Shown here one piece after another: positions 2,010 through 51,676 of a stretch of DNA of 64,000 bases. This DNA is from Deltaproteobacteria bacterium (GTDB taxonomy: Bacteria; Desulfobacterota; GWC2-55-46; UBA9637), in contig JAUYHF010000055.1 in NCBI GenBank assembly GCA_030690165.1, forward strand, positions 3,493-67,492. Reading direction: 5' to 3'. The translations under genes were made by a program, and so were the position numbers. Numbering within the stretch: the stretch's first letter is position 1; each line of letters begins with the position of its first letter. The notes below the pieces were generated by a model, which was not told where the DNA came from, did not search any database, and worked only from the letters and a program-made list of their open reading frames with translations.

Positions 2010-2075
2010 CCCGCTCTTACTCATTGCAATTTCCTTATTTGGATGATAACCTTTTTTTGCAAATGAGGAGATTGT

Positions 2076-2993: not shown

Positions 2994-4312
2994 AACCCAT
3001 TGTTGCAATAGTCGGCAGGCCAAATGTAGGAAAGTCAACATTGTTTAACCGCATCATCGGCAAACAAAAGGCCCTTGTCAAGAATGAGCCTGGCGTGACC
3101 AGAGACTTAAATTATGCGGATGTGGTTGAACAGGGGAGGGCATTTACCCTGATTGACACAGGCGGGTTTGAGCTGCCAAAAAGAGGCAGAGGGGATTTGA
3201 CTATGCTTACCAAGGTAAGAGAGCAGGTTATGCTTGCAATAGAAGAGGCCGACATTATTGTATTTCTCATGGACGGCCGCGAGGGTTTCCTTTCATCTGA
3301 TAGAGATATTGCAGATATATTGAGAAGGGCTGATAAAAAGCCCATTTATGCGGTAAATAAAATAGATACAGATAAGCAAGAGCAGGGGATTACTGATTTT
3401 TATGCCTTAGGCATGGAAGACCTCGCCTTTGTTTCAGCGGAAGGGGGGAGGGGAGTGTATGAACTGCTGGATAAAATAATAGACTCTATTCCTAAAACCA
3501 GCGCCAAAGAGGAAGAAGATAGGATAAAACTTGCTGTTGCAGGGAGGCCCAATGTCGGCAAATCCTCTCTTGTAAACAGACTGCTCGGATATAAAAGGGT
3601 CATTGTGAGCGATATTCCCGGCACCACAAGAGATGCAATTGACACGCCGTTCAATTATAATAAAAAAAAATATCTGCTTATAGACACAGCCGGCATAAGA
3701 AAGAAGACAAGGATTGCCAGAACGCTTGAGCAGTATTCTGTCATGTCGGCCATAAAAAGTATTGACAGGTGCAATATTGCGCTGCTCATCATAGATGCAA
3801 AGGACGGCTTGACAGAACAGGATGAGAAGATAGCAGGTCTTGCCTATGAGAGGGGGAAGGGGTGCATTATTGTTGTAAACAAATGGGACATTATTCAAAA
3901 GGAGACAAATACCATCAAGGAATATACAGAGAGGATAAGATGGAAGGCAGGCTTCTTACGGTTTGCGCCTGTGATATTCGTATCGGCATTCACAGGCCAA
4001 AGGGTCTTTAATATCCTTGAGAAAGTAGAAGAGGTGCTGGCGCAGCTTGAGAAAAGGGTGCCGACCTCACAGCTAAATAATTTTTTTGATGGTTTTAAAA
4101 AATATCACCAACCGCCTATCTATAAAAGCAAGGCCGTGAAGATTTATTACATAACCCAGACAGACATAAAGCCGCCCACATTTGTTGCCTTCGTGAATTT
4201 TACGGAAGGCATCCACTTCTCTTATGAACGGTTTCTTGTAAACAAGATTAGAGAGGCATTTGGATTGGATAAAATACCCATCAGGCTTTATTTTAGAAAG
4301 AGGCAGAGGTAA
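2990..4312 (+). CDS. der: Ribosome-associated GTPase Der/EngA, tandem GTPase domains
   Basis: Two GxxxxGKS P-loops (GRPNVGKST at N-term, GRPNVGKSS mid-protein), C-terminal KH-like domain; 4-bp overlap with era. Confidence 0.9.
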   Translation: MKPIVAIVGRPNVGKSTLFNRIIGKQKALVKNEPGVTRDLNYADVVEQGRAFTLIDTGGFELPKRGRGDLTMLTKVREQVMLAIEEADIIVFLMDGREGFLSSDRDIADILRRADKKPIYAVNKIDTDKQEQGITDFYALGMEDLAFVSAEGGRGVYELLDKIIDSIPKTSAKEEEDRIKLAVAGRPNVGKSSLVNRLLGYKRVIVSDIPGTTRDAIDTPFNYNKKKYLLIDTAGIRKKTRIARTLEQYSVMSAIKSIDRCNIALLIIDAKDGLTEQDEKIAGLAYERGKGCIIVVNKWDIIQKETNTIKEYTERIRWKAGFLRFAPVIFVSAFTGQRVFNILEKVEEVLAQLEKRVPTSQLNNFFDGFKKYHQPPIYKSKAVKIYYITQTDIKPPTFVAFVNFTEGIHFSYERFLVNKIREAFGLDKIPIRLYFRKRQR

Positions 4313-4313
4313 G

Positions 4314-5138
4314 ATGAAAAAATTTTTTATTATTATAGCTGACAGCATCAAGGCATTTTCTTATGATAATTGCCTTACTATGGCTGCGGCAATATCATTT
4401 TATGCCTTATTTTCTCTGCTCCCGCTCATGTTTCTGCTGTTCTCTTTTATAGGCTTTACTCTCGGAACTGAGACACGGTTTTTTGAACAAGTTTTAGAAT
4501 TTGTGAAAAAGAGTCTTCCTTATCTGAGCGACAGCATCGTGGGGGACATTAAAGGGCTTATAGCTAACCGCAAGGTCTTTGGCTGGTTTGGCATTATAAC
4601 GCTCATCTGGAGCGCTGAGTTTGTAATACTTGCCATAAGAGATGCAATGAATATCATTTTTGGAGAAGCGGAGAAGATGGGCTTCGTAAAAACCAGGCTG
4701 GTTGTATGGGGGACATTCTTTATCTGGTGTGCGGTTTTTCTTATTTCCATAGGTCTTCCTCTTGCCGCAGAAATTTTAAGCAGAATAAAAATAGCCGCCT
4801 TCGGCATAGATATATCCTACTATCTTGCGAGGAGTGTAACCTTTAAATATTTCATGCCGGTTGTAATTATGGTTATTGCTGTGGCCTTTATATTCAAAAT
4901 AATGGTCGGGAAAAACATAAAAGCAAGACATGCTATTTTAGGCAGCATAATATTCTCTGTTTTATGGGAGGCGGCAAAACAACTCTTTGCCTTATACATC
5001 ACACATTTCGGAAGTTTTAACAAGATGTATGGCTCTCTCGGCGCTATTATGATAATGCTTTTATGGATATTTTATTCTGCAATTATATTGCTTTTCAGCG
5101 CCGAGTTTATTGCATCTGTAAAGGCGCCCAGGAAATGA
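4314..5138 (+). CDS. YihY/BrkB family inner-membrane protein
   Basis: MKKFFIIIADSIKAFSYDNCLTMAAAISFYALFSLLPLMFLL is the typical YihY N-terminus; multiple TM helices; the ORF-track start at 4260 overlaps der, so ATG 4314 is preferred. Confidence 0.75.
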   Translation: MKKFFIIIADSIKAFSYDNCLTMAAAISFYALFSLLPLMFLLFSFIGFTLGTETRFFEQVLEFVKKSLPYLSDSIVGDIKGLIANRKVFGWFGIITLIWSAEFVILAIRDAMNIIFGEAEKMGFVKTRLVVWGTFFIWCAVFLISIGLPLAAEILSRIKIAAFGIDISYYLARSVTFKYFMPVVIMVIAVAFIFKIMVGKNIKARHAILGSIIFSVLWEAAKQLFALYITHFGSFNKMYGSLGAIMIMLLWIFYSAIILLFSAEFIASVKAPRK

Positions 5139-5379
5139 TACCCAAAAATAGACTTTGATTTTTGGGGAAACCTGCAAGTTGCCTGTCAGACGAGGCAGAG
5201 GCTATTTTTGCGACAAGCCGTATATCACCAATACGGTGAGGAGCAAAAATGCGCCGATAACGAAGTATGGCAGGCAAATCGCAGGTTTGTAAAATAGCGA
5301 GGTTTTTAATCGCTATTTTACAGTGATAACAAGATATTGCGCAGGGATTAGTATTTTGTTATAGTTTTTAGAATTTATT

Positions 5380-5889
5380 ATGATAAAACCTTATAAAGAC
5401 ATAAATCCAAGGATAGCTCCAACAGCATATATTGAAGAGAGCGCCCGGATAATCGGCGATGTGGAGATAGGCGAATATTCCAGCGTATGGTGCAATGCTG
5501 TCCTTCGCGGGGATGTCCATTATATCAGGCTGGGCAAACGGACAAATATTCAGGACAACTGCGTTCTTCACGGCACAAAAGGCGTTTATCCTGTGATACT
5601 CGGAGATGATATTACAGTGGGGCATAATGTTACGCTTCACGGCTGTGTGGTCAAGGACAGATGCCTTATCGGCATGGGTTCAATAATACTTGACGGCGTT
5701 GAGATTGGAGAGGATTCTATAATAGGCGCAGGCGCATTGGTTACCGAAAAAAGCATTATACCGCCGCGGAGCCTTGTAATGGGTCTGCCTGGAAAGGTTG
5801 TAAGACAGCTTAAAGACGCGGAGGTTTCAAGGATTTTACAATCTGCGAAAAACTATATTGAATATTCTGAAGGCTATAAAGGAAGATAA
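5380..5889 (+). CDS. Gamma-class carbonic anhydrase family / hexapeptide-repeat protein
   Basis: Left-handed beta-helix hexapeptide repeats; conserved His ligands (NCVLHG, VTLHG); 169 aa. Confidence 0.8.
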   Translation: MIKPYKDINPRIAPTAYIEESARIIGDVEIGEYSSVWCNAVLRGDVHYIRLGKRTNIQDNCVLHGTKGVYPVILGDDITVGHNVTLHGCVVKDRCLIGMGSIILDGVEIGEDSIIGAGALVTEKSIIPPRSLVMGLPGKVVRQLKDAEVSRILQSAKNYIEYSEGYKGR

Positions 5890-5922
5890 TCCCTGTCCTT
5901 CCCTATCAGGGGAGAGGATATA

Positions 5923-6897
5923 ATGAGCATGGGCATTGCAACACGATACGCATCAATTGACATTGGCACAAATACCCTAAGACTTCTTATTGCGGAAATC
6001 GACAATAAAAAATTAAAGCCTGTTTTCCTAAAAAGGATTATCACAAGGCTCGGCGGTGATTATAAAGAAGATATTGGCATATCGCCGGCAGCAGAGGAGA
6101 GGACAATAAATACCCTCGGGATATTCGCTGAAAAGATTAAAGAGTATGGTGTCCAAGAGATTAAGGCTGTTGCAACCAGTGTGGTGAGAAGGGCAAAGAA
6201 TAAAAAAGAATTTCTCAAAAATGTCCTTGAAAGAACAGGATTAGACGTGAGGGTAATATCAGGGGATGAAGAGGCAAGGCTCTCTTTGTTAGGAGTTTTG
6301 TCGGTTATCGGAAATGGGAACAAAAAGTGTCTTGTGGTTGATATAGGCGGTGGAAGCACAGAATTTATTGCAGTAGATGCCGGAAAGATGATTGGTGCGT
6401 GGAGTATGGAGATGGGAGTTGTGCATCTCACAGAAAACTATTTAAAGACAGACCCGCCGGCTCACAATGAGTTAGATGCGATGGAAAATGAGATAAACGG
6501 CATTATTGCAGATTTGAAGGATTTGATGAAAAAAGCCTGTCCCTGTGAGCTTAAAGCAGGGAACGGCTGTTTGCCTTCAGCCTTGCTGATAGGCACAGCA
6601 GGCACGATAACAACACTGGCATCAATTGATCAGAGGCTTGAAGAATATGATGCTGACAGGATAAATAATTATGTATTAAAATATGAAACTGTTAAAAAGA
6701 TATATCAATGGCTTGCGTCCATGCCTTTAAAAGAAAGGGAAAAGGTGTTATCCCTTGAGAAGGGGAGGGAGGATATTATAATACCTGGGGCGGCTATCGT
6801 ATTAAAGGCAATGGAAGGTTTTGGCTTTGATAAAATGACTGTAAGCGATGCCGGGCTTTTGGAAGGAATATTGTTAGATGAGACAGGTTTAGGTTGA
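5923..6897 (+). CDS. Ppx/GppA family phosphatase (exopolyphosphatase / pppGpp phosphohydrolase)
   Basis: ASKHA-fold N-terminus IDIGTNTLRLLIAE, second DIGGGSTE motif. Confidence 0.8.
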   Translation: MSMGIATRYASIDIGTNTLRLLIAEIDNKKLKPVFLKRIITRLGGDYKEDIGISPAAEERTINTLGIFAEKIKEYGVQEIKAVATSVVRRAKNKKEFLKNVLERTGLDVRVISGDEEARLSLLGVLSVIGNGNKKCLVVDIGGGSTEFIAVDAGKMIGAWSMEMGVVHLTENYLKTDPPAHNELDAMENEINGIIADLKDLMKKACPCELKAGNGCLPSALLIGTAGTITTLASIDQRLEEYDADRINNYVLKYETVKKIYQWLASMPLKEREKVLSLEKGREDIIIPGAAIVLKAMEGFGFDKMTVSDAGLLEGILLDETGLG

Positions 6898-6951
6898 GGG
6901 AAAGACATGCTGAGGAAAACCTTAACCTGTATCTATTAGGAGGTTTAATAT

Positions 6952-8418
6952 ATGCCAAAAAATAATAATATGAAAGAAGGTCTTGCCTTTGACGATGTTT
7001 TATTAGCGCCGGCATATTCAGAGATACTGCCAAGGGATGTGGATACATCTACACGACTTACAAATACAATCAAATTAAACATCCCTCTTTTAAGCGCTGC
7101 CATGGATACGGTTACGGAATCCCGCATGGCCATTGCCATAGCGCAGGAAGGCGGCATGGGTATAATCCATAAAAATATTACCATAGAAGAACAGGCAATA
7201 GAGGTTGACAAGGTAAAAAAATACGAAAGTGTTATCATACTTAAACCCAGAACCCTTGACCCGGAGCAGCGTTTATACGACGTATTGGAGATAAAAAAGA
7301 CTGAGCAGATATCCAGTTTTCCCATAGTGAAAAACGGGAAGCTCGTAGGCATCCTTACCAACAGAGATTTAAGATTTGAAAAAAACCTCTCCAAAAAAAT
7401 ATCGGATGTGATGACAAAAGAGCTTGTAACAGCGCCTGTTGGCACATCCATAGAAAAAGCAAAAGCCATCCTCCATCGCCACAGGATTGAAAAGCTGCCT
7501 GTAGTGGATAAAAACGGGCAACTAAAGGGTTTGATAACCATTAACGATATTGAAAAACGAGAAAAATATCCAAACTCCTGCAAAGATAAACTCGGCAGGC
7601 TTATGGTCGGCGCAGCGATTGGCGTTTCTTTTGACCGTGAAGCAAGGGTGGAGGCGCTTTTAAACGCAGGCGCTGATATCATTGCCATTGATACGGCCCA
7701 CGGCCACAGCAAGGGTGTGCTGAATGCTATTAGGGATACAAGGAAGAACTTTCCCAAATGCCAGCTTATAGCAGGCAATGTCGGGACATCTGAAGGCGCA
7801 GAGGCGCTTATAAAAGCCGGTGTTGACGTAATAAAGGTCGGTATCGGTCCAGGTTCTATATGCACGACAAGGATTGTAACAGGTGTTGGCATTCCACAGA
7901 TAACAGCTATTATGAATTGCGCGGCAGTTGCCAGGAAAAAGAATATACCGGTTATTGCTGATGGCGGCGTAAAGTTTTCAGGAGATATGGTAAAGGCCAT
8001 TGCCGCCGGCGCAGACTCTGTAATGATCGGCGGACTCTTTGCCGGCACAGATGAAAGCCCCGGCGAAACTGTATTATATCAGGGACGGACATATAAAATG
8101 TATAGGGGCATGGGCTCAATTGAAGCTATGAAAAAAGGCAGTAAAGATAGATACTTTCAAGATGATGTTGAGAGTGAACTTAAACTTATTCCTGAGGGTA
8201 TTGAAGGAAGGGTTCCGCATAAAGGGCCGGTATCTTCAACTATATTTCAGCTTATTGGCGGCTTAAAATCAGGCATGGGGTATTGTGGTTCAAGGACTAT
8301 TCCTCTTCTTCAAAAGAAGGCAAAATTGGTAAAAATAACCTTTGCAGGGCTGCGCGAGAGCCATGTCCACGATGTGATTATCACAAAAGAGGCGCCGAAT
8401 TATAAGGTGGTGGAGTAG
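6952..8418 (+). CDS. guaB: IMP dehydrogenase
   Basis: TIM barrel with tandem CBS domains; catalytic loop [11 protein letters not shown]; 488 aa. Confidence 0.95.
8356..8418 (+). repeat. Direct repeat copy A (guaB 3' end, 63 bp)
   Basis: 59/63 identical to 9171-9233; copy A is the in-frame end of guaB. Confidence 0.85.
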
Positions 8419-9858: not shown

Positions 9859-11418
9859 ATGCCGGACATCCATCAGCAAAAAATCCTCATATTAGATTTT
9901 GGCTCACAATATACCCAGCTCATCGCAAGAAGGGTGAGAGAGGCAAAGGTATATTGCGAGATACATCCTTATAATATCGGCATGGACGGGATAAAGGGTT
10001 TTAATGCCAAAGGCATTATCCTCTCAGGCGGACCGTCAAGTGTCTATGACAAAGATGCTCCTCTTATTCCCAAAGAGGTCTTTAATCTAAATATTCCAAT
10101 CCTTGGCATCTGTTACGGAATGCAGCTTACAGCCCATCTCCTTGGCGGCAAGGTGGAGAAATCTGCTCACAGGGAATACGGAAGCGCTGAACTTGTAATT
10201 GATGATGGTTCGGATTTGTTATCACGCATCACGCATCACGCACAACGCATCACACAAGTTTGGATGAGCCACGGCGACAGGGTTATTAAGATGCCGAAGG
10301 GATTTGTATCTATTGCCCACAGCAAAAATTCGCCTATATGCGCAATGAGTGATGACAGAAGAAAAATATTCGGCGTTCAGTTTCATCCTGAGGTTGTCCA
10401 TACACCAAAAGGCCGGCAGATTATCAAAAACTTCCTTTTTAAGATATGTGGATGCAAGCCTGTATGGACTATGGAATCATTCATAGACACTGCTGTAGCA
10501 GATATAAGGGAGCGGGTGGGGAAGAGAGGTATCGTGTGCGGTATAAGCGGCGGCGTTGATTCTGCCGTTGCAGCTGTTTTGCTTCATCGCGCAGCCGGTA
10601 GGCAGCTAACCTGTATATTTGTTGATAACGGTCTTTTGAGGGCAGGGGAGGCGGAGAAGGTGGAACAAGCTCTCAGGAAAAACTTCCGCATGAGGCTTAT
10701 TTGTATAGACGCCTCCAAAAGGTTTCTTAATAAGCTTACGGGAGTGGAAGACCCTGAAAAAAAGCGAAAGATTATCGGAAATGAATTTATAAGGGTTTTT
10801 GAAGAAGAGGCCATGAAATTAAAAAATGCGGCCTTTCTCGGGCAGGGGACATTGTATCCTGATGTGATTGAAAGCATATCATTCAAAGGCCCTTCAGCTA
10901 CTATAAAAAGTCATCATAATGTAGGCGGGCTCTTAAAAAAGATGAAGCTCAAGCTGGTAGAACCGTTAAGAGAATTATTTAAGGACGAGGTTCGCATCCT
11001 GGGCAGGGCATTGGGTATGCCTGAAGAGATAATAAACAGGCATCCATTTCCGGGGCCAGGCCTTGCTATAAGGGTTTTGGGTGAGGTTACAAAAGAGCGG
11101 TGTGAGATTCTGAGAAAGGCCGACAGTATAGCGCTGGAGGAGATAAAGATTGCGGGACTTTATATAAAGATCTGGCAGGCATTTGCAGTGCTTTTGCCGA
11201 TTAAAACAGTTGGCGTAATGGGAGACGAAAGGACTTATGAAAATGTAATTGCAATAAGGGCGGTAGAGAGTGTGGACGGAATGACAGCGGATTGGGTAAG
11301 ATTGCCTTATGATATTATGGCAAGAATTTCAACGAGAATAATAAATGAGGTAAAAGGTGTAAACAGGGTGGTTTACGATATAAGCACAAAACCCCCGAGT
11401 ACAATAGAATGGGAGTGA
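9859..11418 (+). CDS. guaA: GMP synthase (glutamine-hydrolysing)
   Basis: N-terminal class-I GATase ([20 protein letters not shown]), ATP-PPase SGGVDS motif, conserved C-terminal dimerisation domain ending IEWE. Confidence 0.95.
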
Positions 11419-14001: not shown

Positions 14002-15057
14002 CTATGGAAGTGAGGCTGATTTTAACTCCTCGTCAAGCCGTATAAAGCCCTTCCCTTCTTTAGCCATAAGGCTTAATTGGAATCTATCCGATACTTCCCG
14101 GATATTTTTAATTGCATTTTCAGCCCTCTCTCCCTGCAATGGCTTTGCCTGGAATAAAACCTCTTTATTGTTCACATTTAAAGGTATTATCTCAGCCGAA
14201 GAAATCCTATTATTGCTGAATTTCACAATGGCTATCATGCCTTCAGGTATTGATTGACTGACAGACCCGAAGGCAAAATTCCCAAGGCTGTAAAATATAA
14301 GGCCATTTTTATACCTTTCAATCCCCTGGAGAACATGCGGATGGTGGCCTATGATTACACTTGCGCCGCTGTCTATTGCAAGATGCGCAAGTTTTATCTG
14401 ATATTCCTTTGGATATTTCGTCAGCTCTTCACCCCAGTGGAATGAAACTACAACAAAATCAACATGTTTCTTTATTTCAATAATGTCGTATCTCACATAT
14501 TCAAAAACACCTTGGGCAGTCCCGCCAGACTCTTTTGTGGCATAAAATTCCTCTGGAAAGACCTTTGAATATGCAAGAAAAGCAATCTTCTTATTTTTTA
14601 TGCTAATAATTACGGGCATCCTTGCGTCCTTTAAATCCTTGCCTGCGCCAGTATGTTTTAAATCTGCCTTATCCAGAAAATTTATCGTATCCTGCAATCC
14701 ATCCTGGCCATAATCCATAATGTGGTTATTTGCCAGTGTTACAACATCAAAACCAGCGGCCTTTATTGCGCCCGCTGCATCGGGGTCTATCTTTAAGATA
14801 AATTCCTTTTCCATAAATGCATCTCGTCTGTGCGTCAAAGGCGCTTCAAGATTGGCCACTGCAATGTCTGAATCCTTTAATATGCTTTTAGTCGGCTCAA
14901 ATGGGTATAAATAACCGTTCTGCTTCAAATATGGAGCGGCAGAACCGCCAAGATAAATATCCCCTACTGCAAGGATTGTTATAACATCGTCATCGGCGCA
15001 AGATATTGCCGGAGCGGTTAAGAAAAGGAGGTATAAACATAAAATGTGTTTTATCAT
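14002..15057 (-). CDS. CapA/PgsA family metallophosphoesterase-like protein, secreted
   Basis: Signal peptide; LAVGDIYLGG and GHHPHVLQG motifs typical of the CapA family. Confidence 0.75.
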   Translation of the reverse strand: MIKHILCLYLLFLTAPAISCADDDVITILAVGDIYLGGSAAPYLKQNGYLYPFEPTKSILKDSDIAVANLEAPLTHRRDAFMEKEFILKIDPDAAGAIKAAGFDVVTLANNHIMDYGQDGLQDTINFLDKADLKHTGAGKDLKDARMPVIISIKNKKIAFLAYSKVFPEEFYATKESGGTAQGVFEYVRYDIIEIKKHVDFVVVSFHWGEELTKYPKEYQIKLAHLAIDSGASVIIGHHPHVLQGIERYKNGLIFYSLGNFAFGSVSQSIPEGMIAIVKFSNNRISSAEIIPLNVNNKEVLFQAKPLQGERAENAIKNIREVSDRFQLSLMAKEGKGFIRLDEELKSASLP

Positions 15058-15614: not shown

Positions 15615-15632
15615 CGCACACCCTTTATCTAT

Positions 15633-16616
15633 ATGGACCCGCTAACACACAGCCTTTCCGGCGCTATACTTTCCAGAACAGGATTTTATCAAAGATTCGG
15701 CAGGATGGCTACAATAATCCTTGTTGCAGCCGCGATCATCCCTGATATTGACCATTTAACCCTGAGACTTGCAGGCCCCCTCGCCTATCTCAAATATCAT
15801 CGTGGATTTACGCACTCCATTTTTGGCGGCTTTGTAGTTGCTGCTATCATGGCCGGCATTGTCTGTTCAATAAAACGATTTAGAGAAAAATTAGGCTATC
15901 TAATAACCTTTGGCCTATTTTTATTAGGCATATATACCCATATCTTCCTTGACCTTATTACATCTTACGGAACACAGATACTTTTCCCATTCAGCGGCAA
16001 AAGATATTCCCTCGATCTCGTTTTTATCATAGACCTTTATTTCACCGCCTTGATGCTCATCCCGTTAATCGTCATAAGATTCAAGCGGAAATGGGCAAAG
16101 GCTATAGCCTTAATTTCTGTAGCGGGTATAATAATCTATCTGGGGGTTGCCTACGCAGGGAGAACCATTGCTATTGAAAGCGCTAATGCCTGGGCTCACA
16201 AACTTGGTATAATCAGCAAAAAAGTTGAGGCGCTCCCCCTCCCCTTCTCCCCTTTCAGATGGTCTGTGTATATAGAAGATGATAAAAGGTTTTATCAGGT
16301 TGATGTTGATGCGCTGAAAAACAGCGCAACATTTAATTCTTTTGAGAAAAAGCATGTCCCTGAAGGATTAAATCAGGAAACAGAGGGAAATAACATCATT
16401 GAAAAGGTTGAGAATCTGGAGATTGTAAAGACATATCTCTGGTTTGCCAGATTTCCCGTAGTGAGTATAAAGAAGGAAACTGAGGGCTATTCGGTGGAAT
16501 ATTTTGACCTTCGCTTTAATTCCCTGCCGCCGAGAAGGCCGTTTCTCTTGAAGTTGTTTGTTGACAGAAACGGGACGTTAAATAATGCGGAGCTTATGTT
16601 TCATACGACAAAATAA
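15633..16616 (+). CDS. Membrane-bound metal-dependent hydrolase (YbcI/DUF457-like) with C-terminal soluble domain
   Basis: MDPLTHSLSGAIL...IPDIDHL N-terminal motif, several TM helices. Confidence 0.6.
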   Translation: MDPLTHSLSGAILSRTGFYQRFGRMATIILVAAAIIPDIDHLTLRLAGPLAYLKYHRGFTHSIFGGFVVAAIMAGIVCSIKRFREKLGYLITFGLFLLGIYTHIFLDLITSYGTQILFPFSGKRYSLDLVFIIDLYFTALMLIPLIVIRFKRKWAKAIALISVAGIIIYLGVAYAGRTIAIESANAWAHKLGIISKKVEALPLPFSPFRWSVYIEDDKRFYQVDVDALKNSATFNSFEKKHVPEGLNQETEGNNIIEKVENLEIVKTYLWFARFPVVSIKKETEGYSVEYFDLRFNSLPPRRPFLLKLFVDRNGTLNNAELMFHTTK

Positions 16617-29756: not shown

Positions 29757-29966
29757 CTAAGACAAAATCAGATAGGCTATAACAAAACCGAGTATCACCA
29801 TAGTCTCAGGTATAGCCACCAGGATAATAATAACGCCGCCCAACTCAGGCTTTTCTGCCACGGCGCCGGCGCCGGCAGAACCGATTCTACTCTGGGCCCA
29901 CGCAGTTGCCAGCGCAGGGATTGCTATAGCCATGGCCGCAGCCAACGCAATAAGACCTTTTTCCAT
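29757..29966 (-). CDS. atpK: A/V-type ATP synthase proteolipid subunit K
   Basis: 69-aa two-helix hairpin with conserved Glu (AIPETMVILGFVIAYLIL). Confidence 0.75.
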   Translation of the reverse strand: MEKGLIALAAAMAIAIPALATAWAQSRIGSAGAGAVAEKPELGGVIIILVAIPETMVILGFVIAYLILS

Positions 29967-29990
29967 AAAACACCTCCATTATTAAAGTTT

Positions 29991-30078
29991 CAGAGTGTCA
30001 AAGCGTCATAGAGTCAAAGTTTTTTCTCCGCCTTTTCTCTGATACTCTGATACTATGACTCTCTGATACTTTGACTCT
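29991..30078. repeat. Octanucleotide-tandem hairpin element copy A (CTYTGAYA units, inverted arms)
   Basis: Left arm CAGAGTGTCAAAGCGTCATAGAGTCAAAG (3 inverted octamers), spacer, right arm CTCTGATA CTCTGATA CTATGACT CTCTGATA CTTTGACT; abuts atpI stop codon. Confidence 0.8.
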
Positions 30079-31967
30079 TATTTATGTTTTCTGAACGGTT
30101 CATATCTCCTTCCGCCTGTCTCGTAAAACTTGCTGAAAAATTCCACATAATGAAGCCTCAATGAATGCATGGTCGGGCCGAGAACGCCGAGGAATATGTT
30201 TATGGTGTGGATTATACCTGCGATAAGAATGCCGAGGATTATATTGCCTGCCAATCCGCCCAGTTTATTCGCCACAATGGCCAATACGACCGACGCCGTT
30301 CCTATAGCCATGATACGGGCATATGAAAGGATATTGCCGAGCGCCTTTATTACCTCCAATGGCCCAATGATCCCTTCAAGCAGTATAAGGATAACTAAGG
30401 CCGCTGTCATAACTGCTGCGCCTGGGGTCATTAATCCCTTCGGCAGATATTTTGCCAAAACTGCAAGTATAATAAGAAAGGCAAGCATCAATATTAATGC
30501 AGATGCCTTTGCCGCAGCCTGTCTGGCCTTGCCCCTGTGGATATAATTCGTTATTGCAAGCAAAAAACCAAGGATTACATGACCTAACCCTATTCCAATT
30601 GCCAGTATTAAAAAGACCTTTAATGCCTTTAATCTGTCAAAGATTATGGGATGTAAAATGCCGAGCCTTTCTCCCAGATCGCCGAAAAACTCCCCAAAGA
30701 GCGCCCCAAAAACAATTGCAAAAACACTGGATATTGTAAAGACAGAGGCAAGATTAGTGATAAAATCCCGCTCCTTAAATCTCCTTTTCATATAAATGCT
30801 GACAACGAAAAGTATGCTGCCATAGCCGATGTCGCCTAACATAAGGCCGAAAAAAGTCGGAAAGAACAGCGCAAGATAGGGTGTCGGGTCTATTGAGCCG
30901 TATTTGGGCGGCGGCAGGATATTGATAAAGACCTCAAACGGCCTTAAAAATTTCGGATTCTTTATATAAACAGGTATCAAATCCACCTCGTCTTCTCTTA
31001 CCCCCATCTCCCGAACCATAACCTTGTCCCCGAATTTCTCTCTAACAGCATTGGAAAGCGTATTGTATTCATCCTTTGGAATCCATCCTGCAATGACAAA
31101 CGCAAATCTCGTATGGCCGCAGTATGCAAGAACCTTGAATTCATCAAGGGTGCTCAGCAAGAACTCCATGAGACCTTCAAGTTTTTTATACCATTCCTCT
31201 GATAACTCCTTAAATTTATTGTCAATATCTCTTATGAGAAGCGGTATCTCTTCTCTCCTCTTTATCATATTTTTGAGCGCATCAAAGAGTGTCATGTCAA
31301 CATATCTGTGCGGGAGCTTTATCTCTGATATGGCCTCGGTGGAAATAAGCGCCTTTACTCTCGTATCATATTGCCGCGGATAGGTAATAACAATGCCTAT
31401 TATATCTTTATCTATATCCTTTACAAAGAACTGATACCTTGTTTCTGTAATGCGGTTTATCTCATTTTCGAACAAAGGTATAATATCTTCTTTGGCCAGC
31501 TCAATGGTAATGCCGATCGTCTCAAAATTATTGAGCCCCTTTAATTTTGCCACAAGCGGCGCAATGCCTTTTAATATTTTTTCATATCGCGCAATAGATG
31601 AAATCTCCTCTGTAAGCTCCGCCTTTTCAGCATGGAGCCCCTTGACCTCCTTTTCCAATCCATCTACTTCATGCAGAAAGGCATCGGATGCAATGTCGGC
31701 AATTACGAACCCATCTCCTCTTTCAACCCCGGATGCAGGAAGAAGGAGATATATCCCCTTCAATCTATCCGCTATCCTCTCAAGCCTTTCCTTAAGCAAA
31801 GCCTTTTCCTTCTCAACAGGCATCCTCCTCATATATGAATCTTCAAAGGCAATCCTTGCGGGCATGCTCTCTATATGAACAATGCCAAGGTTATGAAGCA
31901 GTCTTATAACCTCATCCAGCATGCCCTTTGAGCCGATAAGCTGCACCTTGCTCATTGCCTTTATCAT
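30078..31967 (-). CDS. atpI: A/V-type ATP synthase subunit I (a)
   Basis: 629 aa, N-terminal soluble plus C-terminal multi-TM domain with conserved Arg. Confidence 0.8.
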   Translation of the reverse strand: MIKAMSKVQLIGSKGMLDEVIRLLHNLGIVHIESMPARIAFEDSYMRRMPVEKEKALLKERLERIADRLKGIYLLLPASGVERGDGFVIADIASDAFLHEVDGLEKEVKGLHAEKAELTEEISSIARYEKILKGIAPLVAKLKGLNNFETIGITIELAKEDIIPLFENEINRITETRYQFFVKDIDKDIIGIVITYPRQYDTRVKALISTEAISEIKLPHRYVDMTLFDALKNMIKRREEIPLLIRDIDNKFKELSEEWYKKLEGLMEFLLSTLDEFKVLAYCGHTRFAFVIAGWIPKDEYNTLSNAVREKFGDKVMVREMGVREDEVDLIPVYIKNPKFLRPFEVFINILPPPKYGSIDPTPYLALFFPTFFGLMLGDIGYGSILFVVSIYMKRRFKERDFITNLASVFTISSVFAIVFGALFGEFFGDLGERLGILHPIIFDRLKALKVFLILAIGIGLGHVILGFLLAITNYIHRGKARQAAAKASALILMLAFLIILAVLAKYLPKGLMTPGAAVMTAALVILILLEGIIGPLEVIKALGNILSYARIMAIGTASVVLAIVANKLGGLAGNIILGILIAGIIHTINIFLGVLGPTMHSLRLHYVEFFSKFYETGGRRYEPFRKHK

Positions 31968-37235: not shown

Positions 37236-37995
37236 AAGAAAAGATATAGAAGATAAAAAAGGTCACACCTGTTCCAAGAAGGGCGCCGAGTAGTATCTCA
37301 AATTTTGTGTGTATGCCTCCCACGAGACGGCTGTGGCTCACCATTAGCGCCATAACAAAGGTGAGAACCGTTACAACAGGGTCAAGCGTCAGGAGAACAA
37401 CAGCAGCCCAGATGGAAAAGGCAACAGCAGAATGACCGCTCGGCATACCACCGTGAAGCGGAGCGCCCTTTCCCAAATATGCCTTTGATACAACAACATT
37501 TATAAGCACAACAAGCAGCGACACAACGGCAATATGGACTTTAAACGCGCTGCCGGTTCGCAATACCTGAGAAAACGGGATGGTCAAATATTTGGAAAAA
37601 ATAATATAACCCATAATAAACACGCCAATGGATGATATTAAAACAGCTCCTGCTGAAACATCCTTGGCTATCTTTGCCAGCGCATGATATTTTTTGCCGC
37701 AGACAATATCTACCGCAGTTTCAATGGCGGTGTTTACCATCTCTGCAAATAACAATATTACAATGGAGAGCGAAAGAAGCGCAAACTCGGCTGCGGGAAG
37801 ATTTAAGATAAGGCTTAAAAAGAGAGATGCCGCTGCTGCAGCAAAGAAGTACCTTATATGCCTCTGATGTCTTACTGCATATATGACGCCCTCTATGGCG
37901 CAATTGAGGCTTTCAAAAATATTTTTTGGTTTTACGAGTTCTTTATCTTCTTCCAATTTATAATCTCCAGATATATTACATTTTACAATCTGCAC
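37222..37995 (-). CDS. dgkA: Diacylglycerol kinase (DgkA) fused to PAP2 phosphatase domain
   Basis: N-terminal DgkA fold (NCAIEGVIYAVRHQRHIRYF, EMVNTAIETAVD); C-terminal PAP2 motifs KxxxxxxRP-like, PSGHS, SRLVGGIH. Confidence 0.7.
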   Translation of the reverse strand: MQIVKCNISGDYKLEEDKELVKPKNIFESLNCAIEGVIYAVRHQRHIRYFFAAAAASLFLSLILNLPAAEFALLSLSIVILLFAEMVNTAIETAVDIVCGKKYHALAKIAKDVSAGAVLISSIGVFIMGYIIFSKYLTIPFSQVLRTGSAFKVHIAVVSLLVVLINVVVSKAYLGKGAPLHGGMPSGHSAVAFSIWAAVVLLTLDPVVTVLTFVMALMVSHSRLVGGIHTKFEILLGALLGTGVTFFIFYIFSFVSK

Positions 37996-38435
37996 TTTGC
38001 AATCTTCATTAGTCTCTTCTCCTCTTTCTTCATCCTCAAAGCCTCTTTGCGTCCTTTTTCGTGGTCAAAACCCAATAGATGAAGTATGCCGTGAATCAAA
38101 AGCCTTGCCATCTCTTGATTCAGAGTTACGCCATTTTCTTTCGCCTGTGTTTTTGCAGTTTCTACTGATATGACAACATCGCCCAAAATGAGTTGGGAGT
38201 TGGGAGTTCGGGGTTCGGAGTTAAAATCCCACATGGGAAACGAAAGCACATCCGTAGACTTATCCTTTTTTAAATAACGTTTATTCAGTTTCTGAATGCC
38301 GGCATTGTCAGTCAGGAGTACGCTCAACTCCGCATTGTCACGGCAGCCCAAATCTTTTAATACCTCTCTTGCCAGCCTCTTTATCTCCTTTATCCCAGCC
38401 CCCGCCTTCTGCTCTTTTTGTATCAATACCTTCAA
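37983..38435 (-). CDS. ybeY: rRNA maturation endoribonuclease YbeY
   Basis: HGILHLLGFDHE zinc motif. Confidence 0.85.
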   Translation of the reverse strand: MKVLIQKEQKAGAGIKEIKRLAREVLKDLGCRDNAELSVLLTDNAGIQKLNKRYLKKDKSTDVLSFPMWDFNSEPRTPNSQLILGDVVISVETAKTQAKENGVTLNQEMARLLIHGILHLLGFDHEKGRKEALRMKKEEKRLMKIAKCRL

Positions 38436-41110: not shown

Positions 41111-41121
41111 AAAAATAGCAT

Positions 41122-41197
41122 CACAGAGTCAGAGGGTCATAGTGTCAAAGTCTTTTCTCATACTCTGACACTTTGACTCTTTGATACTTTGACTCTT
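41122..41197. repeat. Octanucleotide-tandem hairpin element copy B
   Basis: CACAGAGTCAGAGGGTCATAGTGTCAAAG ... CTCTGACA CTTTGACT CTTTGATA CTTTGACT; abuts stop codon of GH57 gene. Confidence 0.8.
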
Positions 41198-45841: not shown

Positions 45842-46528
45842 TTACTGTCTTTTAATAATTCCCTCAAAAATCCCTCTCCCATCCTCTCCCCCAAGGATTG
45901 ATTCACAAACCCTTTCAGGGTGAGGCATAGCTCCGAAGACATTTCCTTTTTCGTTGATTATGGCTGCAATATTATTGACTGAGCCGTTTGGGTTGATATT
46001 CTCTGTAATTCGGCCGTCCTGAGTAGAATATCTGAAAATTATCTGGTTATTATCCTCCAGCCTTTTGATAGCGTCTTTATCCGCAAAATAATTTCCGTCA
46101 GCATGGGCAATAGGGATGTTTAATATCTGGTTTTTCTGATATGTATTTGTAAACATGGTCTGGTTATTCTCTACCTTTACATAAACATTCTGGCAGATGA
46201 ACTTAAGGCTCCTGTTTCTCATCAAGACCCCCGGCAAAAGCCCTGCCTCTGTTAATATCTGAAAACCATTACATATGCCTATAACACGACCGCCTTTATT
46301 TGCAAAACGAATCACCTCATTCATTACCGGTGAAAATCTGGCAATAGCTCCGGTCCGTAAATAGTCTCCATATGAAAATCCGCCTGGCAGGATAATACAG
46401 TCAAACCCTTTGAGGCTTGTATCCTTATGCCAGATATATTCAGCCTCCTGGCCCATAACATGCTTGGCCGCATGATAGCAGTCGTGGTCGCAGTTTGAGC
46501 CTGGGAATACGATTATGCCAAATCTCAT
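45842..46528 (-). CDS. purQ: Phosphoribosylformylglycinamidine synthase, glutaminase subunit
   Basis: Class-I GATase triad (GICNGFQ, His-Pro-Glu). Confidence 0.85.
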
Positions 46529-46782
46529 TCTATCTCTACCCTGTAGTCTTCAACAACAGTATTTGCCAGAAGTTTTTCGCACATTTCCTTAAGGCTTTTT
46601 TCCGCATCTTGTTTAGATGAGGTGTCAAGCTCAACTTCAATAAACTTGCCTATTCTTAAACCCTTGACCTCACTGTATCCCATAGATGCAAGGGCATCGC
46701 CCACAGCCTTTCCCTGCGGGTCAAGCACGCCTTTTTTTAATGTCACAAAAACCTTTGCCTTCATAAAATCTCTATCTTTCAT
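46525..46782 (-). CDS. purS: Phosphoribosylformylglycinamidine synthase subunit PurS
   Basis: 85 aa, overlaps purQ by 4 bp. Confidence 0.8.
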
Positions 46783-48100
46783 AGACTACCCTTCCTGCAA
46801 CTATTGTCTTTACAGCCTTCCCTTTCATTTTCCACCCGTCAAACGGCGTATTCCTGCTCTTTGATTTTAATTCTTTGGCATCCACAATCCACTCCTTGTT
46901 CAAGTCAACAATTGCTATATCAGCATCGGCCCCGACTTTTAATTGCCCCTTGCTGTCAAGCCCAAACAGTTTTGCCGGATTTGCGGATAATTTTGCAATC
47001 AATTCCGACAATGTTAAAACATTATCGGAAACAAGCCTTAAACACAGAGGCAGGGCTGTTTCCAGACCGATAATCCCGTTTGCCGCCTTATCAAACTCAA
47101 CATCCTTTTCATCAAGCGTTTGCGGTGCATGGTCGGTTGCAATCGCATCTATTGTTCCATCCTCAAGCCCTCTTTTTATTGCATCAATATCTTGCATGGT
47201 TCTAAGCGGTGGGTTCATCTTTGTATTTGTATTATAGCCTATAACAGCCTCATCCGTCAGGGTAAAATGATGCGGCGTAACCTCTGCCGTAATATTTAAT
47301 CCTCTTTGTTTTGCATTTCTTACAAGCGCAACAGATCCTTTTGTGCTTATATGGGCAATATGCAATCTTCCTTCTGTAAGCTCCGCCAGTGCAATGTCTC
47401 TTGCCGCCATAATATCCTCTGCTGCATCGGGAATGCCTTTAAGTCCGAGTTTTGTTGACACAAAACCTTCATTCATAACGCCATCCCCTGCAAGACCTGT
47501 GTCTTCGCAGTGGCTTATTACCAATAAGTTAAACTGCTTTGCATATTCCATTGCCAGTCTCATAAGCCCGCTGTTTGCAACAGGCCTTCCGTCATCAGAT
47601 ATTGCAACGCATCCTGAATCTTTTAATTCTCCTATCTCTGCAAGGGTTTCACCTTTCAGTCCTTTGCTTATTGCGCCAATGGGAAGAACATTTATAACAC
47701 CTTCTTCCATTGCCTTTTTAAGTATATACCGTGTAACCGATGTATTATCATTTACCGGGTTTGTATTTGCCATGCACGCAATTGAGGTAAATCCGCCTGC
47801 TGCTGCCGCCATTGTGCCTGTCCTGATGGTCTCCTTATATTCATAACCAGGTTCCCGCAGATGCGTATGCATATCAATAAAACCCGGGCAGACAAGTAGT
47901 CCAGAGGCATCAATGGTTCGGAGTCCAGTGTCAGAGTCTTTAACCCTTTGCCCCTTTGACACTTTGACTCTTTGACCTTCTATTCTGATTTCTTTTATCT
48001 TTTCCCCCTCAATCAATACATCCCCTATCCCATCAACCCCATTTGCAGGGTCTATCACCCTTCCGCCTTTGATTAAGAACTTATTCACGGCTGCCTCCAA
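46772..48100 (-). CDS. pyrC: Dihydroorotase, carrying an in-frame repeat-element insertion near the N-terminus
   Basis: [13 protein letters not shown] metal-binding motif; insertion encodes [19 protein letters not shown]. Confidence 0.85.
47926..47977. repeat. Octanucleotide-tandem hairpin element copy C, inside pyrC coding sequence
   Basis: CAGTGTCAGAGTCTTT ... CTTTGACA CTTTGACT CTTTGACC; same family as 29991-30078 and 41122-41197. Confidence 0.75.
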
Positions 48101-49007
48101 GCAACAGATAAAACAGCGCCATTCTCACAGCAACGCCGTTTTTGACCTGACCTAATATCAGTGAATACGGCCCGTCAGCAACATCAGATGAAATCTCAAC
48201 ACCCCTGTTTATTGGCCCCGGGTGAAGTATGACAACATCCTTTTTTGCATTTGCAAGTTTTACAGAATCAAGGCCAAACAACCTTGAATACTCCCTCACT
48301 GTCGGGAACAGTCCTGCCTTCTGCCTTTCCAGTTGAATCCTTAATATCATTATAACATCCGCATCTTTTATAGCATCTTCTATTTTGTAAAATACCCTGC
48401 ACCCGGTTTTTTCAATGCCGGAAGGCATCATTGTAGGAGGCCCTGCAACCATGACCTCTGCACCAAGTTTTATGAAGCCGTATATATTGCTTCTCGCAAC
48501 CCTTGAATGAGAAATATCGCCTATTATTGCAATCTTTAAGCCCTCTATCTTTTCAAATCTTTCCCTGACAGTCAATAAATCAAGGAGCGCCTGGCTTGGG
48601 TGTTCATGGCTGCCGTCCCCTGCATTTATCACAGAGCACTTTACAAGCCTTGCAAGTATTTCAGACGCGCCGCTTGAAGGGTGTCTCAAGACTATGCAGT
48701 CCGGGTGCATTGCCTCAAGATTTTTTGCAGTGTCTTTTAATGTCTCGCCCTTTACAACACTGCTTGTTGACACAGAGATATTTATCGCGTCAGCGCTCAT
48801 CCTCTTTGCGGCAATCTCAAAGGATGTCCTTGTCCTTGTAGATGCCTCATAAAAAAGATTTATGATGGTTCTGCCGCGAAGCGTCGGAACCTTTTTTATC
48901 TCCCTTTCAGAGACCTCTTTAAAGGACTGCGCAGTTGATAAGATAAGTTCTATCTCGTCTCTTGCAAGATCTTCAATAGTTAATATATCTTTTCTCTTAA
49001 GCCTCAT
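48081..49007 (-). CDS. pyrB: Aspartate carbamoyltransferase catalytic subunit
   Basis: STRTR and HPxQ motifs. Confidence 0.9.
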
Positions 49008-49519
49008 TCAATCTCCACAGTCACATCATCCTCGCCATCTGTCTCTTTCAAGCGCACCTTTACCTTTTCCTGTACTGAGGTGGGCGCATTCTTGCCGACA
49101 TAATCCGGTCTTATGGGAAGTTCCCTGTGCCCCCTGTCTATCAGGACGGCAAACTGGATATTGGCAGGCCTTCCGAAGTCCATTATCACATTCATCGCAG
49201 CCCTGATTGTCCTTCCTGTAAAAAGCACATCATCAACAATAATAACCTTTTTATTATCAAGGGGAACGGGTATATCTGTTTCTTTTAATACCGGCTGGTC
49301 ATGCTTCATCCCGATATCATCCCTGTAAAGAGTTGCGTCAACAGCGCCGACCGGCAGGTTAACATCCTCTGTTTTATTTAATATCTCCCTTAATCTTCTG
49401 GCAATATATACGCCGCGGGTCGGAATGCCAAGGATGACGATATTTTCAACACCCTTATTCTTTTCAATAATCTCGTGCGCTATCCTTGTCAGCGCCCTTT
49501 CCATGTCCTTTTCATCCAT
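49004..49519 (-). CDS. pyrR: Bifunctional pyr operon regulator / uracil phosphoribosyltransferase PyrR
   Basis: [17 protein letters not shown]-terminus, PRTase motif [13 protein letters not shown]; start taken at internal ATG (ORF-track start 49570). Confidence 0.8.
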
Positions 49520-49692
49520 TATATGTTTTCTATGCATATCAACCTTCCCCGTAAGACGGCTCTGACGCAAAAAAATACCCCCTTATTTTTTAATAGCCTG
49601 ATTAAGGAGGTATCAAAAACATTTAAGTTATATTTTATCATTTCCAATCCCTTTCTTAACCTCTCCGGGTCAAATTAAAAGGGGAGGTAGAA

Positions 49693-50079
49693 CTACTGCT
49701 TTGCCCTTATCAGCCTAACAGCGTCTATATTAAAATAAAGCGTCCTGGTGTATCTGTCAAAAAAATTTACATCTATCTTATAGCGAAGAGAAACCTCTAT
49801 GTCGGAATCCCTTCTATCCACAATAATATCCTTCTCCTCAATGGGAAGCCCAAACTCCTTAACCCTGATCATGATATATTTTACTATCTGCTCGTCAGTG
49901 TACAGATGAGCGTTATCGGCATCATTTGCAACCTCTGTATTTATCATGTAGTAAGTAATGTATGGCGGGGCAAATTTGATGCCGATATAGACCGCGGCAA
50001 CTATCAAAATAACCCAAAAGAGGGTCCCAATGCTTATCTTGCCGTCTTTATTCTTCCATCTCCTCCCCATTTTAAACAT
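49693..50079 (-). CDS. Hypothetical membrane-anchored protein (128 aa)
   Basis: Single N-terminal TM (IGTLFWVILIVAAVYIGIKF), no family recognised. Confidence 0.45.
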   Translation of the reverse strand: MFKMGRRWKNKDGKISIGTLFWVILIVAAVYIGIKFAPPYITYYMINTEVANDADNAHLYTDEQIVKYIMIRVKEFGLPIEEKDIIVDRRDSDIEVSLRYKIDVNFFDRYTRTLYFNIDAVRLIRAKQ

Positions 50080-50234
50080 TTATACACTGTTATTATTATG
50101 AGAGTCAATGTAAATTTTCCAAATTCCCTTTAATCGGTTGACTTTTGTAAATCGGTATAGTATATAAAAACCTCAGTTTATTAGTTTGTAATCCTGAAAA
50201 AGGCAGTTATTCCCAATTCAGAATTTGTTCACTG

Positions 50235-50779: not shown

Positions 50780-50911
50780 CCATATAACTTAATAATCTCA
50801 TCCAACATAAGATATGGCTTTATTAATCCGCAATTTGTATCAATTTGTTTTTTCACGTTCACATTGATTTTATCACAGAGAGTTAATATATTTTACATAG
50901 GAGGAAATATT

Positions 50912-51676
50912 ATGAAGAGATTTTTACTTTTTATGACAATCGCTATCCTGTTTACTGTTTGGGGATGCAGTAAAAAAGTCGTGACATCAGAGACAGCCGT
51001 TGGACAGATACCAAAGAAAGAGGCAGCCCAGACAGAGGCGGTCAAGGAGAAAGAAACCGCCGCAGTTACCGCGCCTGTTGAGGCTCCATCCATAACACCA
51101 GAAGCCGTGAAACAAGAGGAAGCTGTTACAGAGGAGAAAGAAGCCGCCGCAGTTGCCGCGCCTGTTGAAGTTCCATCCATAATACCAGAAACCGTGAAAT
51201 CAAAGGAAGCTGCTATAGAGGAGAAAGAAACTGCCGCAGTTACTGCGCCTGTTGAGGCTCCATCCATAATACCAGAAGCCGTGAAATCAAAGGAAGCTGC
51301 TATAGAGGAGAAAGAAACTGCCGCAGTTACTGCGCCTGTTGAGGTATTAAAGCTGCAGGACATATTCTTTGATTTCGACAGGTTCCTTATCAGGGAAGAG
51401 GCCAGGCCGGTTCTTGAGACAAATGCGGATTACTTGAAAGCCAATAAGGATTCTAAAATTCTTATTGAAGGCCACTGTGATGAAAGGGGAACCTCGGAAT
51501 ACAATATGGCCCTTGGCGAGAGAAGGGCGCAGTCTGCAAAAAAATACCTTATTGATCTGGGTATAGACCCATCGAGGATATCCACTATAAGTTACGGTAA
51601 AGAAAAGCCATTCTGCACAGACCACAACGAGGGATGCTGGCAAGAAAACAGAAGGGCGCATTTTACCATAAAGTAA
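50912..51676 (+). CDS. OmpA/Pal-family lipoprotein with ~29-aa tandem repeats in linker
   Basis: RBS GGAGG, lipobox LFTVWGC; four 87-nt repeats (ETAAVTAPVEAPSIIPEAVKSKEAAIEEK) between 51046 and 51340; C-terminal OmpA-like peptidoglycan-binding domain. Confidence 0.8.
   Translation: MKRFLLFMTIAILFTVWGCSKKVVTSETAVGQIPKKEAAQTEAVKEKETAAVTAPVEAPSITPEAVKQEEAVTEEKEAAAVAAPVEVPSIIPETVKSKEAAIEEKETAAVTAPVEAPSIIPEAVKSKEAAIEEKETAAVTAPVEVLKLQDIFFDFDRFLIREEARPVLETNADYLKANKDSKILIEGHCDERGTSEYNMALGERRAQSAKKYLIDLGIDPSRISTISYGKEKPFCTDHNEGCWQENRRAHFTIK

Follow-up and report, generated by a model that had tools for sequence, protein, structure and literature searches.

How does an inverted octanucleotide repeat come to be translated inside pyrC, the gene for dihydroorotase (DHOase)? 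This question is raised by a 64,000-nucleotide stretch of DNA from Deltaproteobacteria bacterium (assembly GCA_030690165.1, contig JAUYHF010000055.1, positions 3,493 to 67,492; hereafter the window, in whose own numbering positions are given), in which a reading of the letters alone (the sequence-only reading) had described a third copy of an octamer hairpin inserted into this gene. The explanation that we favor, with moderate confidence, is that the pyrC copy is a degenerate copy of a dispersed repeat in a permissive loop of PyrC, that it was brought there by cassette recombination and that it has since been shaped by selection. In what follows L names denote loci of relatives and P names denote PyrC proteins, and orthologues were compared in a 40-orthologue alignment and in a set of 66 scorable GTDB loci.

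The element at 47922-47977 is an inverted pair of tandem octamer arrays, with five tandem octamers (unit CTTTGACN on the plus strand) and a two-unit inverted arm. On the plus strand the five octamers at 47938-47977 read CTTTAACC CTTTGCCC CTTTGACA CTTTGACT CTTTGACC (period 8, 5.0 copies, 81% matches and a score of 52 in Tandem Repeats Finder, TRF), and the inverted units GAGTCCAG TGTCAGAG lie directly 5' of this array at 47922-47937. In the coding sense of pyrC the parts are as follows, the left arm being drawn from TRF and translation.

47938-47977, minus strand: left arm, GGTCAAAG AGTCAAAG TGTCAAAG GGGCAAAG GGTTAAAG, encoding 13 amino acids
47922-47937, minus strand: truncated right arm, CTCTGACA CTGGACTC, encoding (D)SDTGL
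47978-47992, minus strand: junction, GAAATCAGAATAGAA, encoding EIRIE

The junction may represent one or more decayed outer units of the left arm, an uncertain assignment that is based on comparison with L012 where the array begins right after ...KEI S. The whole element is in frame on the minus strand and encodes 24 amino acids, and the encoded peptide repeats every 8 amino acids because three 8-nt units make 24 nt. The earlier statement that the element is translated within dihydroorotase is thus upheld by the open reading frame (ORF) at 46772-48100 (minus), which reads straight through it. The earlier assignment of the element to a family with three copies in the window also stands. Specifically, the octamer pattern has 14 matches in the window versus 0.52 expected, none of 100 shuffles reaches 14, and the matches are confined to pyrC and to two intergenic inverted arrays.

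29988-30077, no strand assigned: intergenic copy 1, an inverted octamer array whose arms have 4-5 units each and are separated by an A-rich spacer of 17 nt, flanked by the stop of ORF 30078-31967 (minus) and the start of ORF 29757-29966 (minus)
41120-41197, no strand assigned: intergenic copy 2, likewise an inverted octamer array, flanked by GH57 (stop at 41199) and phoH (start at 41110)

Read as transcribed, the copies share the layout (RTCANAGN) × 4-5, an A-rich spacer of 1-17 nt and (CTNTGAYN) × 4-5. When family membership is taken as at least three tandem CTNTGAYN units with an inverted NRTCANAG arm, the pyrC copy belongs with its five plus two units, and the sister allele in L084 has 5 + 5 units in its pyrC array. 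The same alleles are present in independent NCBI, ENA, Logan and JGI assemblies, and an assembly artefact was rejected on this ground. Both intergenic copies are placed immediately after stop codons. Copy 2 is present in the window and in L084 and absent at the syntenic positions of L001 (8987-9023) and L085 (18071-18113), and comparison of the filled and empty GH57-phoH sites revealed no target-site duplication and the replacement of about 14 nt. A transposable element of the miniature inverted-repeat type (MITE) was rejected as a candidate given this lack of a duplication between the filled and empty sites. A T7 run followed by the phoH ribosome-binding site is found after copy 2 in the window only.

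The gene that carries the third copy, and its operon neighbors, are as follows.

46772-48100, minus strand: pyrC, type-I dihydroorotase, with the annotated start GTG at 48088 (438 amino acids)
48081-49570, minus strand: pyrB (48081-49007) and pyrR (49004-49570), upstream of pyrC in the same operon, with Pfam matches on the syntenic locus

As judged from its sequence, the pyrC product is a type-I dihydroorotase with intact core motifs. It scores 452 bits against TIGR00857 (cut-off 279), matches the Aquifex DHOase 1xrf with an E value of 1e-117 over residues 7-441 and is 100% identical to the PyrC of an NCBI metagenome-assembled genome (MAG, 'Deltaproteobacteria bacterium'). The metal and catalytic residues D76, H78 and H80 (the HxH motif at 78/80), D169/D170, H197, H250 and D323-H324 are invariant in the 40-orthologue alignment, where the protein is nearly free of indels outside the loop. 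The segment between the DP and PG motifs has 53 amino acids in the window PyrC versus 38-42 in 37 of the 66 scorable GTDB orthologues, and the loop of the Aquifex DHOase is 13 amino acids shorter (13 gap positions in the HMMER alignment). The sequence-only reading had made this segment 13-18 residues longer than is typical; it is indeed longer, with an excess here of about 11-13 amino acids that falls slightly below that range. Its placement of the segment between the N-terminal strand and the HxH motif is borne out both by the alignment and by an AlphaFold2 model (mean predicted local distance difference test score, pLDDT, of 81.5). The model also answers the suggestion of examining the structure for a surface loop, as residues 41-59 are coil, with residues 44-57 at a pLDDT below 50, and lie between confident strands at 34-40 and 60-64 (10-residue block means of pLDDT ~94-96). 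The element-encoded segment is accordingly modeled as a hydrophilic, disordered surface-loop extension between two N-terminal beta-sandwich strands, ahead of HxH.

Comparison of relatives indicates that this loop is a permissive, hypervariable site that holds different 7- or 8-nt arrays in several phyla. Both its length and its content vary across the 40 orthologues and the 66 GTDB loci, and in L003, L007, L012, L021, L004 and L018 it is encoded by a 7/8-mer array or hairpin. For example, L003 has an octamer hairpin (GGGGTCGA GGGGGCAA ×2 ... TTGAACCC ×4; -47.5 kcal/mol, z -6.7), L007 a heptamer hairpin (GGATRCA ... TCRTGYA), L021 a heptamer run (AAAGCTS × 6-7) and L004 a GCCTTCA × 3.5 array; the L002 loop is a G-rich palindrome with the peptide PPLEKGERGDL. 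A full hairpin of the window's own octamer family is seen in the pyrC loop of L012, a Thermodesulfovibrionales MAG (TATCAAAG GGTCAAAG GCTCAAAG GGTCAAAG G CTCTGACA CTCTGACC CTCGGACG CTCTGATA), and likewise in the pyrC DNA of L088 which codes for a Nitrospirota-type PyrC. In both cases the element is at the same codon phase as in the window. The loop peptide of P0136, a fragment of a Nitrospirota-type PyrC, fits this octamer family as well, a reading taken from the peptide and not from DNA. P0136 was the useful one of 5 matches obtained when the 58-amino-acid patch plus loop was compared with 1.8 billion representatives in an exhaustive HMMER search; a word-indexed protein search with the same query gave no candidates. 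A peptide-pattern scan of metagenomes confirmed at least 19 relatives, with L087 (L084-like) and L088 (full hairpin) informative among the matches listed. Closer to the window, the 90%-identity cluster of its PyrC has 14 members of 428-446 amino acids, all of them full length, with at least six loop alleles. The loops of L085 and L086 have a near-baseline length yet are heptamer-built and look like diverged versions of one array.

The array in the window is not the only part of pyrC that departs from these closest relatives, as is evident when identity with L084, L085 and L086 is followed along the operon.

47915-48028, minus strand: mosaic cassette, array plus 5' flank, about 115 bp

The region overall is a mosaic of L084-like and L085-like segments. 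The window pyrC is 97% identical to L085 and L086 over the 1050 nt downstream of the loop, and the upstream pyrR-pyrB genes are 98-99.5% identical to L085. In contrast, the 54 nt directly 5' of the array are only 48-56% identical to L085 and L086, and the loop itself is not alignable with either. This patch encodes GVDGLFDVYVVDGKIAAI in L086 and QIDGLFDVYVVDGKIAAI in L085, and the window peptide differs from both. The same patch is identical to L084 at 54 of 54 positions even though the L084 gene body, at 94.8%, is below those of L085 and L086, and it is 72-76% identical to pyrC from Thermodesulfovibrionales, with which the gene body shares only 63% identity. In the other members of the clade (P0002-P0025) the flank is of the GLFD(V/I)Y type, and therefore it is the flank shared by the window and L084 that is the outlier. 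This pattern of identities indicates that the pyrC copy probably arrived in a swapped cassette and not by hopping from the resident intergenic copies. It also suggests that the ultimate source was a Nitrospirota-like pyrC in which the octamer hairpin was already present, and it is from this that we infer the donor and the direction of transfer.

A mechanism that would link these features starts from a lineage-specific dispersed repeat made of inverted tandem octanucleotide arrays, with the unit CTNTGAYN and 4-5 units or about 35 nt per arm. A cassette of ~115 bp, consisting of the array and its 54 nt of 5' flank, would have been swapped into pyrC within a recombining groundwater population, through short-patch homologous recombination, its nearest counterpart being the Thermodesulfovibrionales-type pyrC, in which a complete hairpin of this family is found at the matching codon and phase. 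In the permissive PyrC loop the copy would be translated as a disordered extension that leaves the enzyme core intact. Later shaping would have included the selective removal of TGA read in frame within the CTNTGAC arm, slippage by 3-unit (24-nt) steps that preserve the frame, and loss of the hairpin potential of the mRNA.

With regard to this later shaping, the codons of the pyrC copy indicate that selection has acted on it, by removal of in-frame TGA and by length steps of 24 nt. The CTNTGAYN unit contains TGA and, with a period of 8, three consecutive units put TGA in every frame. Among six coding copies TGA is intact at 0 of 5 in-frame versus 14 of 18 out-of-frame positions (Fisher p = 0.004), the in-frame positions having been changed to GGA or TGT. 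The window allele has only two right-arm units and thereby avoids the TGA problem. The 446-amino-acid allele of L084 equals the window allele plus RTLGHSDT, which is 24 nt or three more right-arm octamers; it is the sole unit-number variant among the cluster alleles, and with a difference of three units its frame is kept. A phase-variable contingency locus was considered as well and was rejected, since the only variant is +24 nt in frame and 14 of 14 cluster members are full length. The pyrC copy is most likely a tolerated passenger.

A further claim of the sequence-only reading was that the element puts an RNA hairpin within the pyrR-pyrB-pyrC transcript. Folding of the copies relative to shuffled sequences gave the following values.

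pyrC copy of the window, mRNA sense: -19.8 kcal/mol, z -1.3, 23 of 200 shuffles fold as well
pyrC copy of the window, antisense: -23.6 kcal/mol, z -2.9, 2 of 200 shuffles
pyrC allele of L084, mRNA sense: -20.7 kcal/mol, z +0.2, 111 of 200 shuffles
intergenic copy 29988-30077, transcribed sense: -30.1 kcal/mol, z -4.4, 0 of 200 shuffles
intergenic copy 41120-41197, transcribed sense: -29.7 kcal/mol, z -5.2, 0 of 200 shuffles

In the transcript, little is left of the hairpin potential of the coding copy, as the window copy and the L084 allele fold no better than chance there, and the claim of a transcript hairpin is not supported by this result. A regulatory role in the pyr operon likewise finds no support. 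An Rfam scan of 46500-50200 matched only the PyrR site and no family at the element. A simple terminator and promoter scan, which returned 20 terminator-like sites versus 16.7 expected and 48 promoter-like sites versus 31.5 (sd 5.3) from shuffles, flagged none of the three octamer copies, and therefore a terminator role is unsupported. A link to PyrR binding had been considered since the units contain CAGAG; it was dropped as identical units are present at unrelated intergenic sites. The PyrR-binding RNA itself (RF00515) is seen upstream of pyrR at 49569-49686 (minus) with 48.2 bits, below the gathering score of 54, and an E value of 8.8e-5. Such a site fits control of the operon by PyrR attenuation.

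Several points weigh against the reading of the pyrC copy as a selected remnant of a recombined cassette. The patch is only 54 nt long and its amino acid sequence is near the broad PyrC consensus (72% to Tepidanaerobacteraceae, for example), so that a Nitrospirota donor is suggested and not proven; a donor more than 80% identical in DNA was looked for and none was found. Alternatively, a second pyrC-like paralogue within this genome could have served as the source. Neutrality for the enzyme is a property that we infer from lack of conservation alone. Finally, the octamer family is resident in the genome, and its filled/empty polymorphism at the intergenic GH57-phoH site indicates that some insertion mechanism exists. 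This last point leads to direct insertion, in which a mobile octamer-hairpin element would have transposed from another genomic copy into pyrC, in frame by luck. The same family at two intergenic window sites, the gain or loss of copies evident at copy 2, and the recurrence of a few families within single genomes (5-6 copies in 9 kb of L012, 3-4 families in L007) all speak for such movement, but we consider it an unlikely origin for the pyrC copy. Here the array is part of a cassette in which the 5' flank, foreign-looking over 54 nt, was replaced too, and the array's codon and phase match those in Nitrospirota pyrC; the nearest relatives hold other arrays at this site and not an empty loop, and filled versus empty sites show neither a target-site duplication nor a terminal signature. 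The earlier description of the element as inserted is not sustained by these observations.

A functional cis-element, either an RNA hairpin that tunes the pyr operon or a DNA array that is the target of a protein reader of 7-8-bp repeats, appears very unlikely to us. Ribbon-helix-helix proteins such as omega, ParG and MetJ are candidates for such readers of 7-8-bp tandem repeats. A role of this type would suit the intergenic copies, which fold far beyond shuffles and are situated immediately after stop codons, and paired octa-/heptanucleotide arrays of Geobacter metallireducens have been proposed as global-regulator sites with IHF and HU as candidates (PMC2700814). However, the pyrC copy folds at chance level in the mRNA sense, unrelated arrays replace it in ~97% identical genomes, it has no Rfam match and the terminator scan calls no copy. 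Slipped-strand amplification of a local 8-nt seed in an unconstrained loop, with no imported DNA, is a shade more improbable still. Heptamer and long simple repeats are over-represented in bacteria, which has been attributed to polymerase slippage (PMC4679880, PMC4692102), unit number does vary among the pyrC alleles, and the heptamer-built loops of L085 and L086 also speak for it. Against this, the CTNTGAYN unit with its inverted arm is found again at loci that are unrelated and in a second phylum, slippage makes no inverted arm and leaves the replaced 5' flank unexplained, and the unit sequences found here are not derivable from ancestral local sequence. The chance that the segment is simply old PyrC sequence that looks repeat-like by accident is negligible. 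An intact reading frame is the sole point in its favor, and it is refuted by octamer-free orthologues that have no similar sequence of equal length at the loop, the very comparison that the sequence-only reading had named as decisive, as well as by an 8-nt periodicity and intergenic matches far beyond chance. Cassette recombination into a permissive loop is thus the explanation that we retain.

We also analyzed how widespread in-frame arrays are beyond pyrC, using a TRF survey of 84 sequences (1.35 Mb) in which arrays were counted at three or more copies. Periods 7 (82 arrays) and 8 (24 arrays) dominate. The 106 arrays occur in 28 sequences (466 kb), with the other 56 loci (886 kb) being array-free; 75 of the 106 are inside long ORFs and 31 are intergenic. 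The array arms have a median of 4.4-4.5 units, equal to 31-35 nt, and there are 16 adjacent inverted pairs. Arm length is ~31-35 nt for both 7- and 8-nt units across all loci, which suggests a constraint on arm length and not on unit number.

Within the window, guaA (GMP synthase, ORF 9859-11418, plus) has ATCACGC × 4.7 in frame at 10221-10253, which encodes 13 amino acids before the conserved VWMSHGD, and ybeY (RNase YbeY, ORF 37983-38435, minus) has GAGTTSG × 4.7 in frame at 38190-38222, which encodes NSEPRTPNSQ. The ybeY loop differs among the window, L084 (palindromic repeat LSGTGFQPVMTGKMPVPPGKG) and L001 (a shorter repeat), and its GAGTTSG heptamer family recurs in the pyrC loops of P0007 and P0010. 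Among relatives, three in-frame arrays or hairpins are located in carB of L003 (10163-10222, 10390-10462 and 10661-10728), the arrays of L007 are in tatD, pyrC, carA (three) and carB (three; 15622-15978), L030 has arrays in carA and carB (carB 14360-14390), and L012 has a carB array at 6722-6796. In L003, L012 and L030 the CarB loop after TYE(K/R)P is occupied by three distinct unit families, with the carB unit of L030 seen in L011 at a similar locus position, and the CarA loop after VWKW likewise holds different families in L007 and L030. One octamer family is present at 5-6 sites within the 9 kb of L012, and L007 has about 3-4 families. This recurrence of a few unit families at several loci per genome argues for family dispersal over purely local slippage. 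Thus, an in-frame element in an essential enzyme, which had been called uncommon, is a frequent occurrence in this material. Overall, the sequence-only reading was correct as to the third copy, its frame and its location, and was not supported as to rarity, insertion and the RNA hairpin.

A comparison of the window with L084 (95% identity over 12.9 kb) left six gaps that span 12 or more columns, of which one is a run of N. Three of the five real indels are at or in repeats, namely the 24-nt pyrC change, an L084-only CTTGAAA array and the different ybeY-loop repeat. In L084 this array, at ~7300-7460 (window ~42946), is a 24-nt CTTGTGA CTTGAAA CTTGAAA CTT array upstream of GH57 that is absent in the window. 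Two other features were noted. In the window an 87-bp tandem repeat × 3.4 (92% matches, TRF score 500) is located at 51045-51344 within ORF 50864-51676 (plus); the encoded protein has a repeat rich in Ala, Glu, Pro and Val in its N-terminal half and what looks like an OmpA/Pal-type domain at its C-terminus. In L085, positions 1-7800 upstream of pyrR carry a phage or integrative-element gene block (ParB_N, Phage_CP76, a CI-like repressor and a resolvase); the comparison with the window covered L085 from position 7900 onward.

Among known systems, the closest parallel by behavior is the Rickettsia palindromic element and by architecture the paired sites of G. metallireducens. Rickettsia palindromic elements are found in frame within many housekeeping genes (Ogata et al. 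2000, reviewed in PMC10969869). Like the pyrC element they are small palindromic repeats that are translated and tolerated in unrelated housekeeping genes, presumably at fold-compatible positions. However, they are ~100-150 bp long, have a family consensus and a conserved peptide and are restricted to Rickettsia, whereas the elements described here are 56-90 bp of pure tandem 8-nt units in variable number from free-living groundwater lineages, and the PyrC loop holds different families in different genomes. Assignment to the Rickettsia elements was rejected on size (56-90 bp), on the exclusive use of 8-nt units and on a peptide that depends on unit number. In G. metallireducens, paired tandem octa-/heptanucleotide sites of classes 1-3 and a GGACCGG × 4 family have been described, with one family noted both within and between genes (Aklujkar et al. 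2009, PMC2700814). As in the octamer arrays, 3-5 tandem 7-8-nt units are paired on opposite strands at variable spacing, with copies that number in the tens per genome, and by these features the arrays are the same kind of element from a different family. The G. metallireducens sites have the units GTTGCTYN, TCTCCGTS and MTYCTGA versus CTNTGAYN here; they were read as regulator, IHF or HU sites, and in-frame translation in enzyme loops or cassette exchange is not described there.

Other repeat classes are more distant. Heptanucleotide repeats termed STRR were reportedly described in cyanobacteria by Mazel in 1990. Long simple-sequence 7-nt repeats of bacteria include TAACTGA (PMC4679880) and GGGNATC (PMC4692102) repeats. 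All three resemble the present arrays as dispersed, lineage-specific 7-nt tandems of about four units with a patchy distribution, but the arrays here form inverted pairs and are mostly inside ORFs (75/106). Repetitive extragenic palindromes (REPs) and the related BIME and REPIN are, like the intergenic octamer copies, short multicopy intergenic hairpins located just after stop codons. REPs are nevertheless single 20-40-nt imperfect palindromes with GTAG/CGTC heads that are mobilized by RAYT transposases, whereas tandem units are peculiar to the octamer copies, in which we found neither a GTAG/CGTC head nor a single palindrome of the REP kind. Foldback (FB) transposons of Drosophila, which are eukaryotic, kilobase-scale and of known transposition, offer an analogy of architecture only, in that their arms are tandems of short sub-repeats and their central spacer is variable or absent. 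Literature searches returned nothing relevant that links heptanucleotide repeats to Nitrospirae, Thermodesulfovibrio or Nitrospina, and no description of translated hairpin arrays that recur in the same enzyme loops or of cassette exchange.

In its lineage the pyrC copy is nothing out of the ordinary, and more interest attaches to the wider phenomenon than to this one example. It is possible, although we advance this as a tentative and rather doubtful proposal, that in Nitrospirota, Nitrospinota and groundwater 'Deltaproteobacteria' hairpin hepta-/octanucleotide arrays make up a distinct prokaryotic repeat class that is active, persists in or targets a few permissive loops of housekeeping enzymes (PyrC, CarA, CarB, YbeY, GuaA and TatD) and is rewritten or exchanged by dedicated machinery faster than the surrounding genes diverge. 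Genomes with 95-99% identity elsewhere differ in the 7/8-nt arrays of their PyrC, CarA, CarB and YbeY loops, and if the proposal is true then enzyme loops become hypervariable cassettes. For annotation, the pattern accounts for many odd low-complexity metagenomic peptides such as SKGQRVK, LEPLNPRTLEP and NSELRTPNS. The arrays could serve as a sensitive strain marker for groundwater populations, they offer a tractable system for the source of the long-noted excess of heptamer repeats in bacteria, and cassettes that move by short-patch recombination could map permissive insertion sites in core enzymes. An essential enzyme can, on this evidence, bear fast-changing translated repeat DNA, with its frame kept via the removal of stops and three-unit steps.

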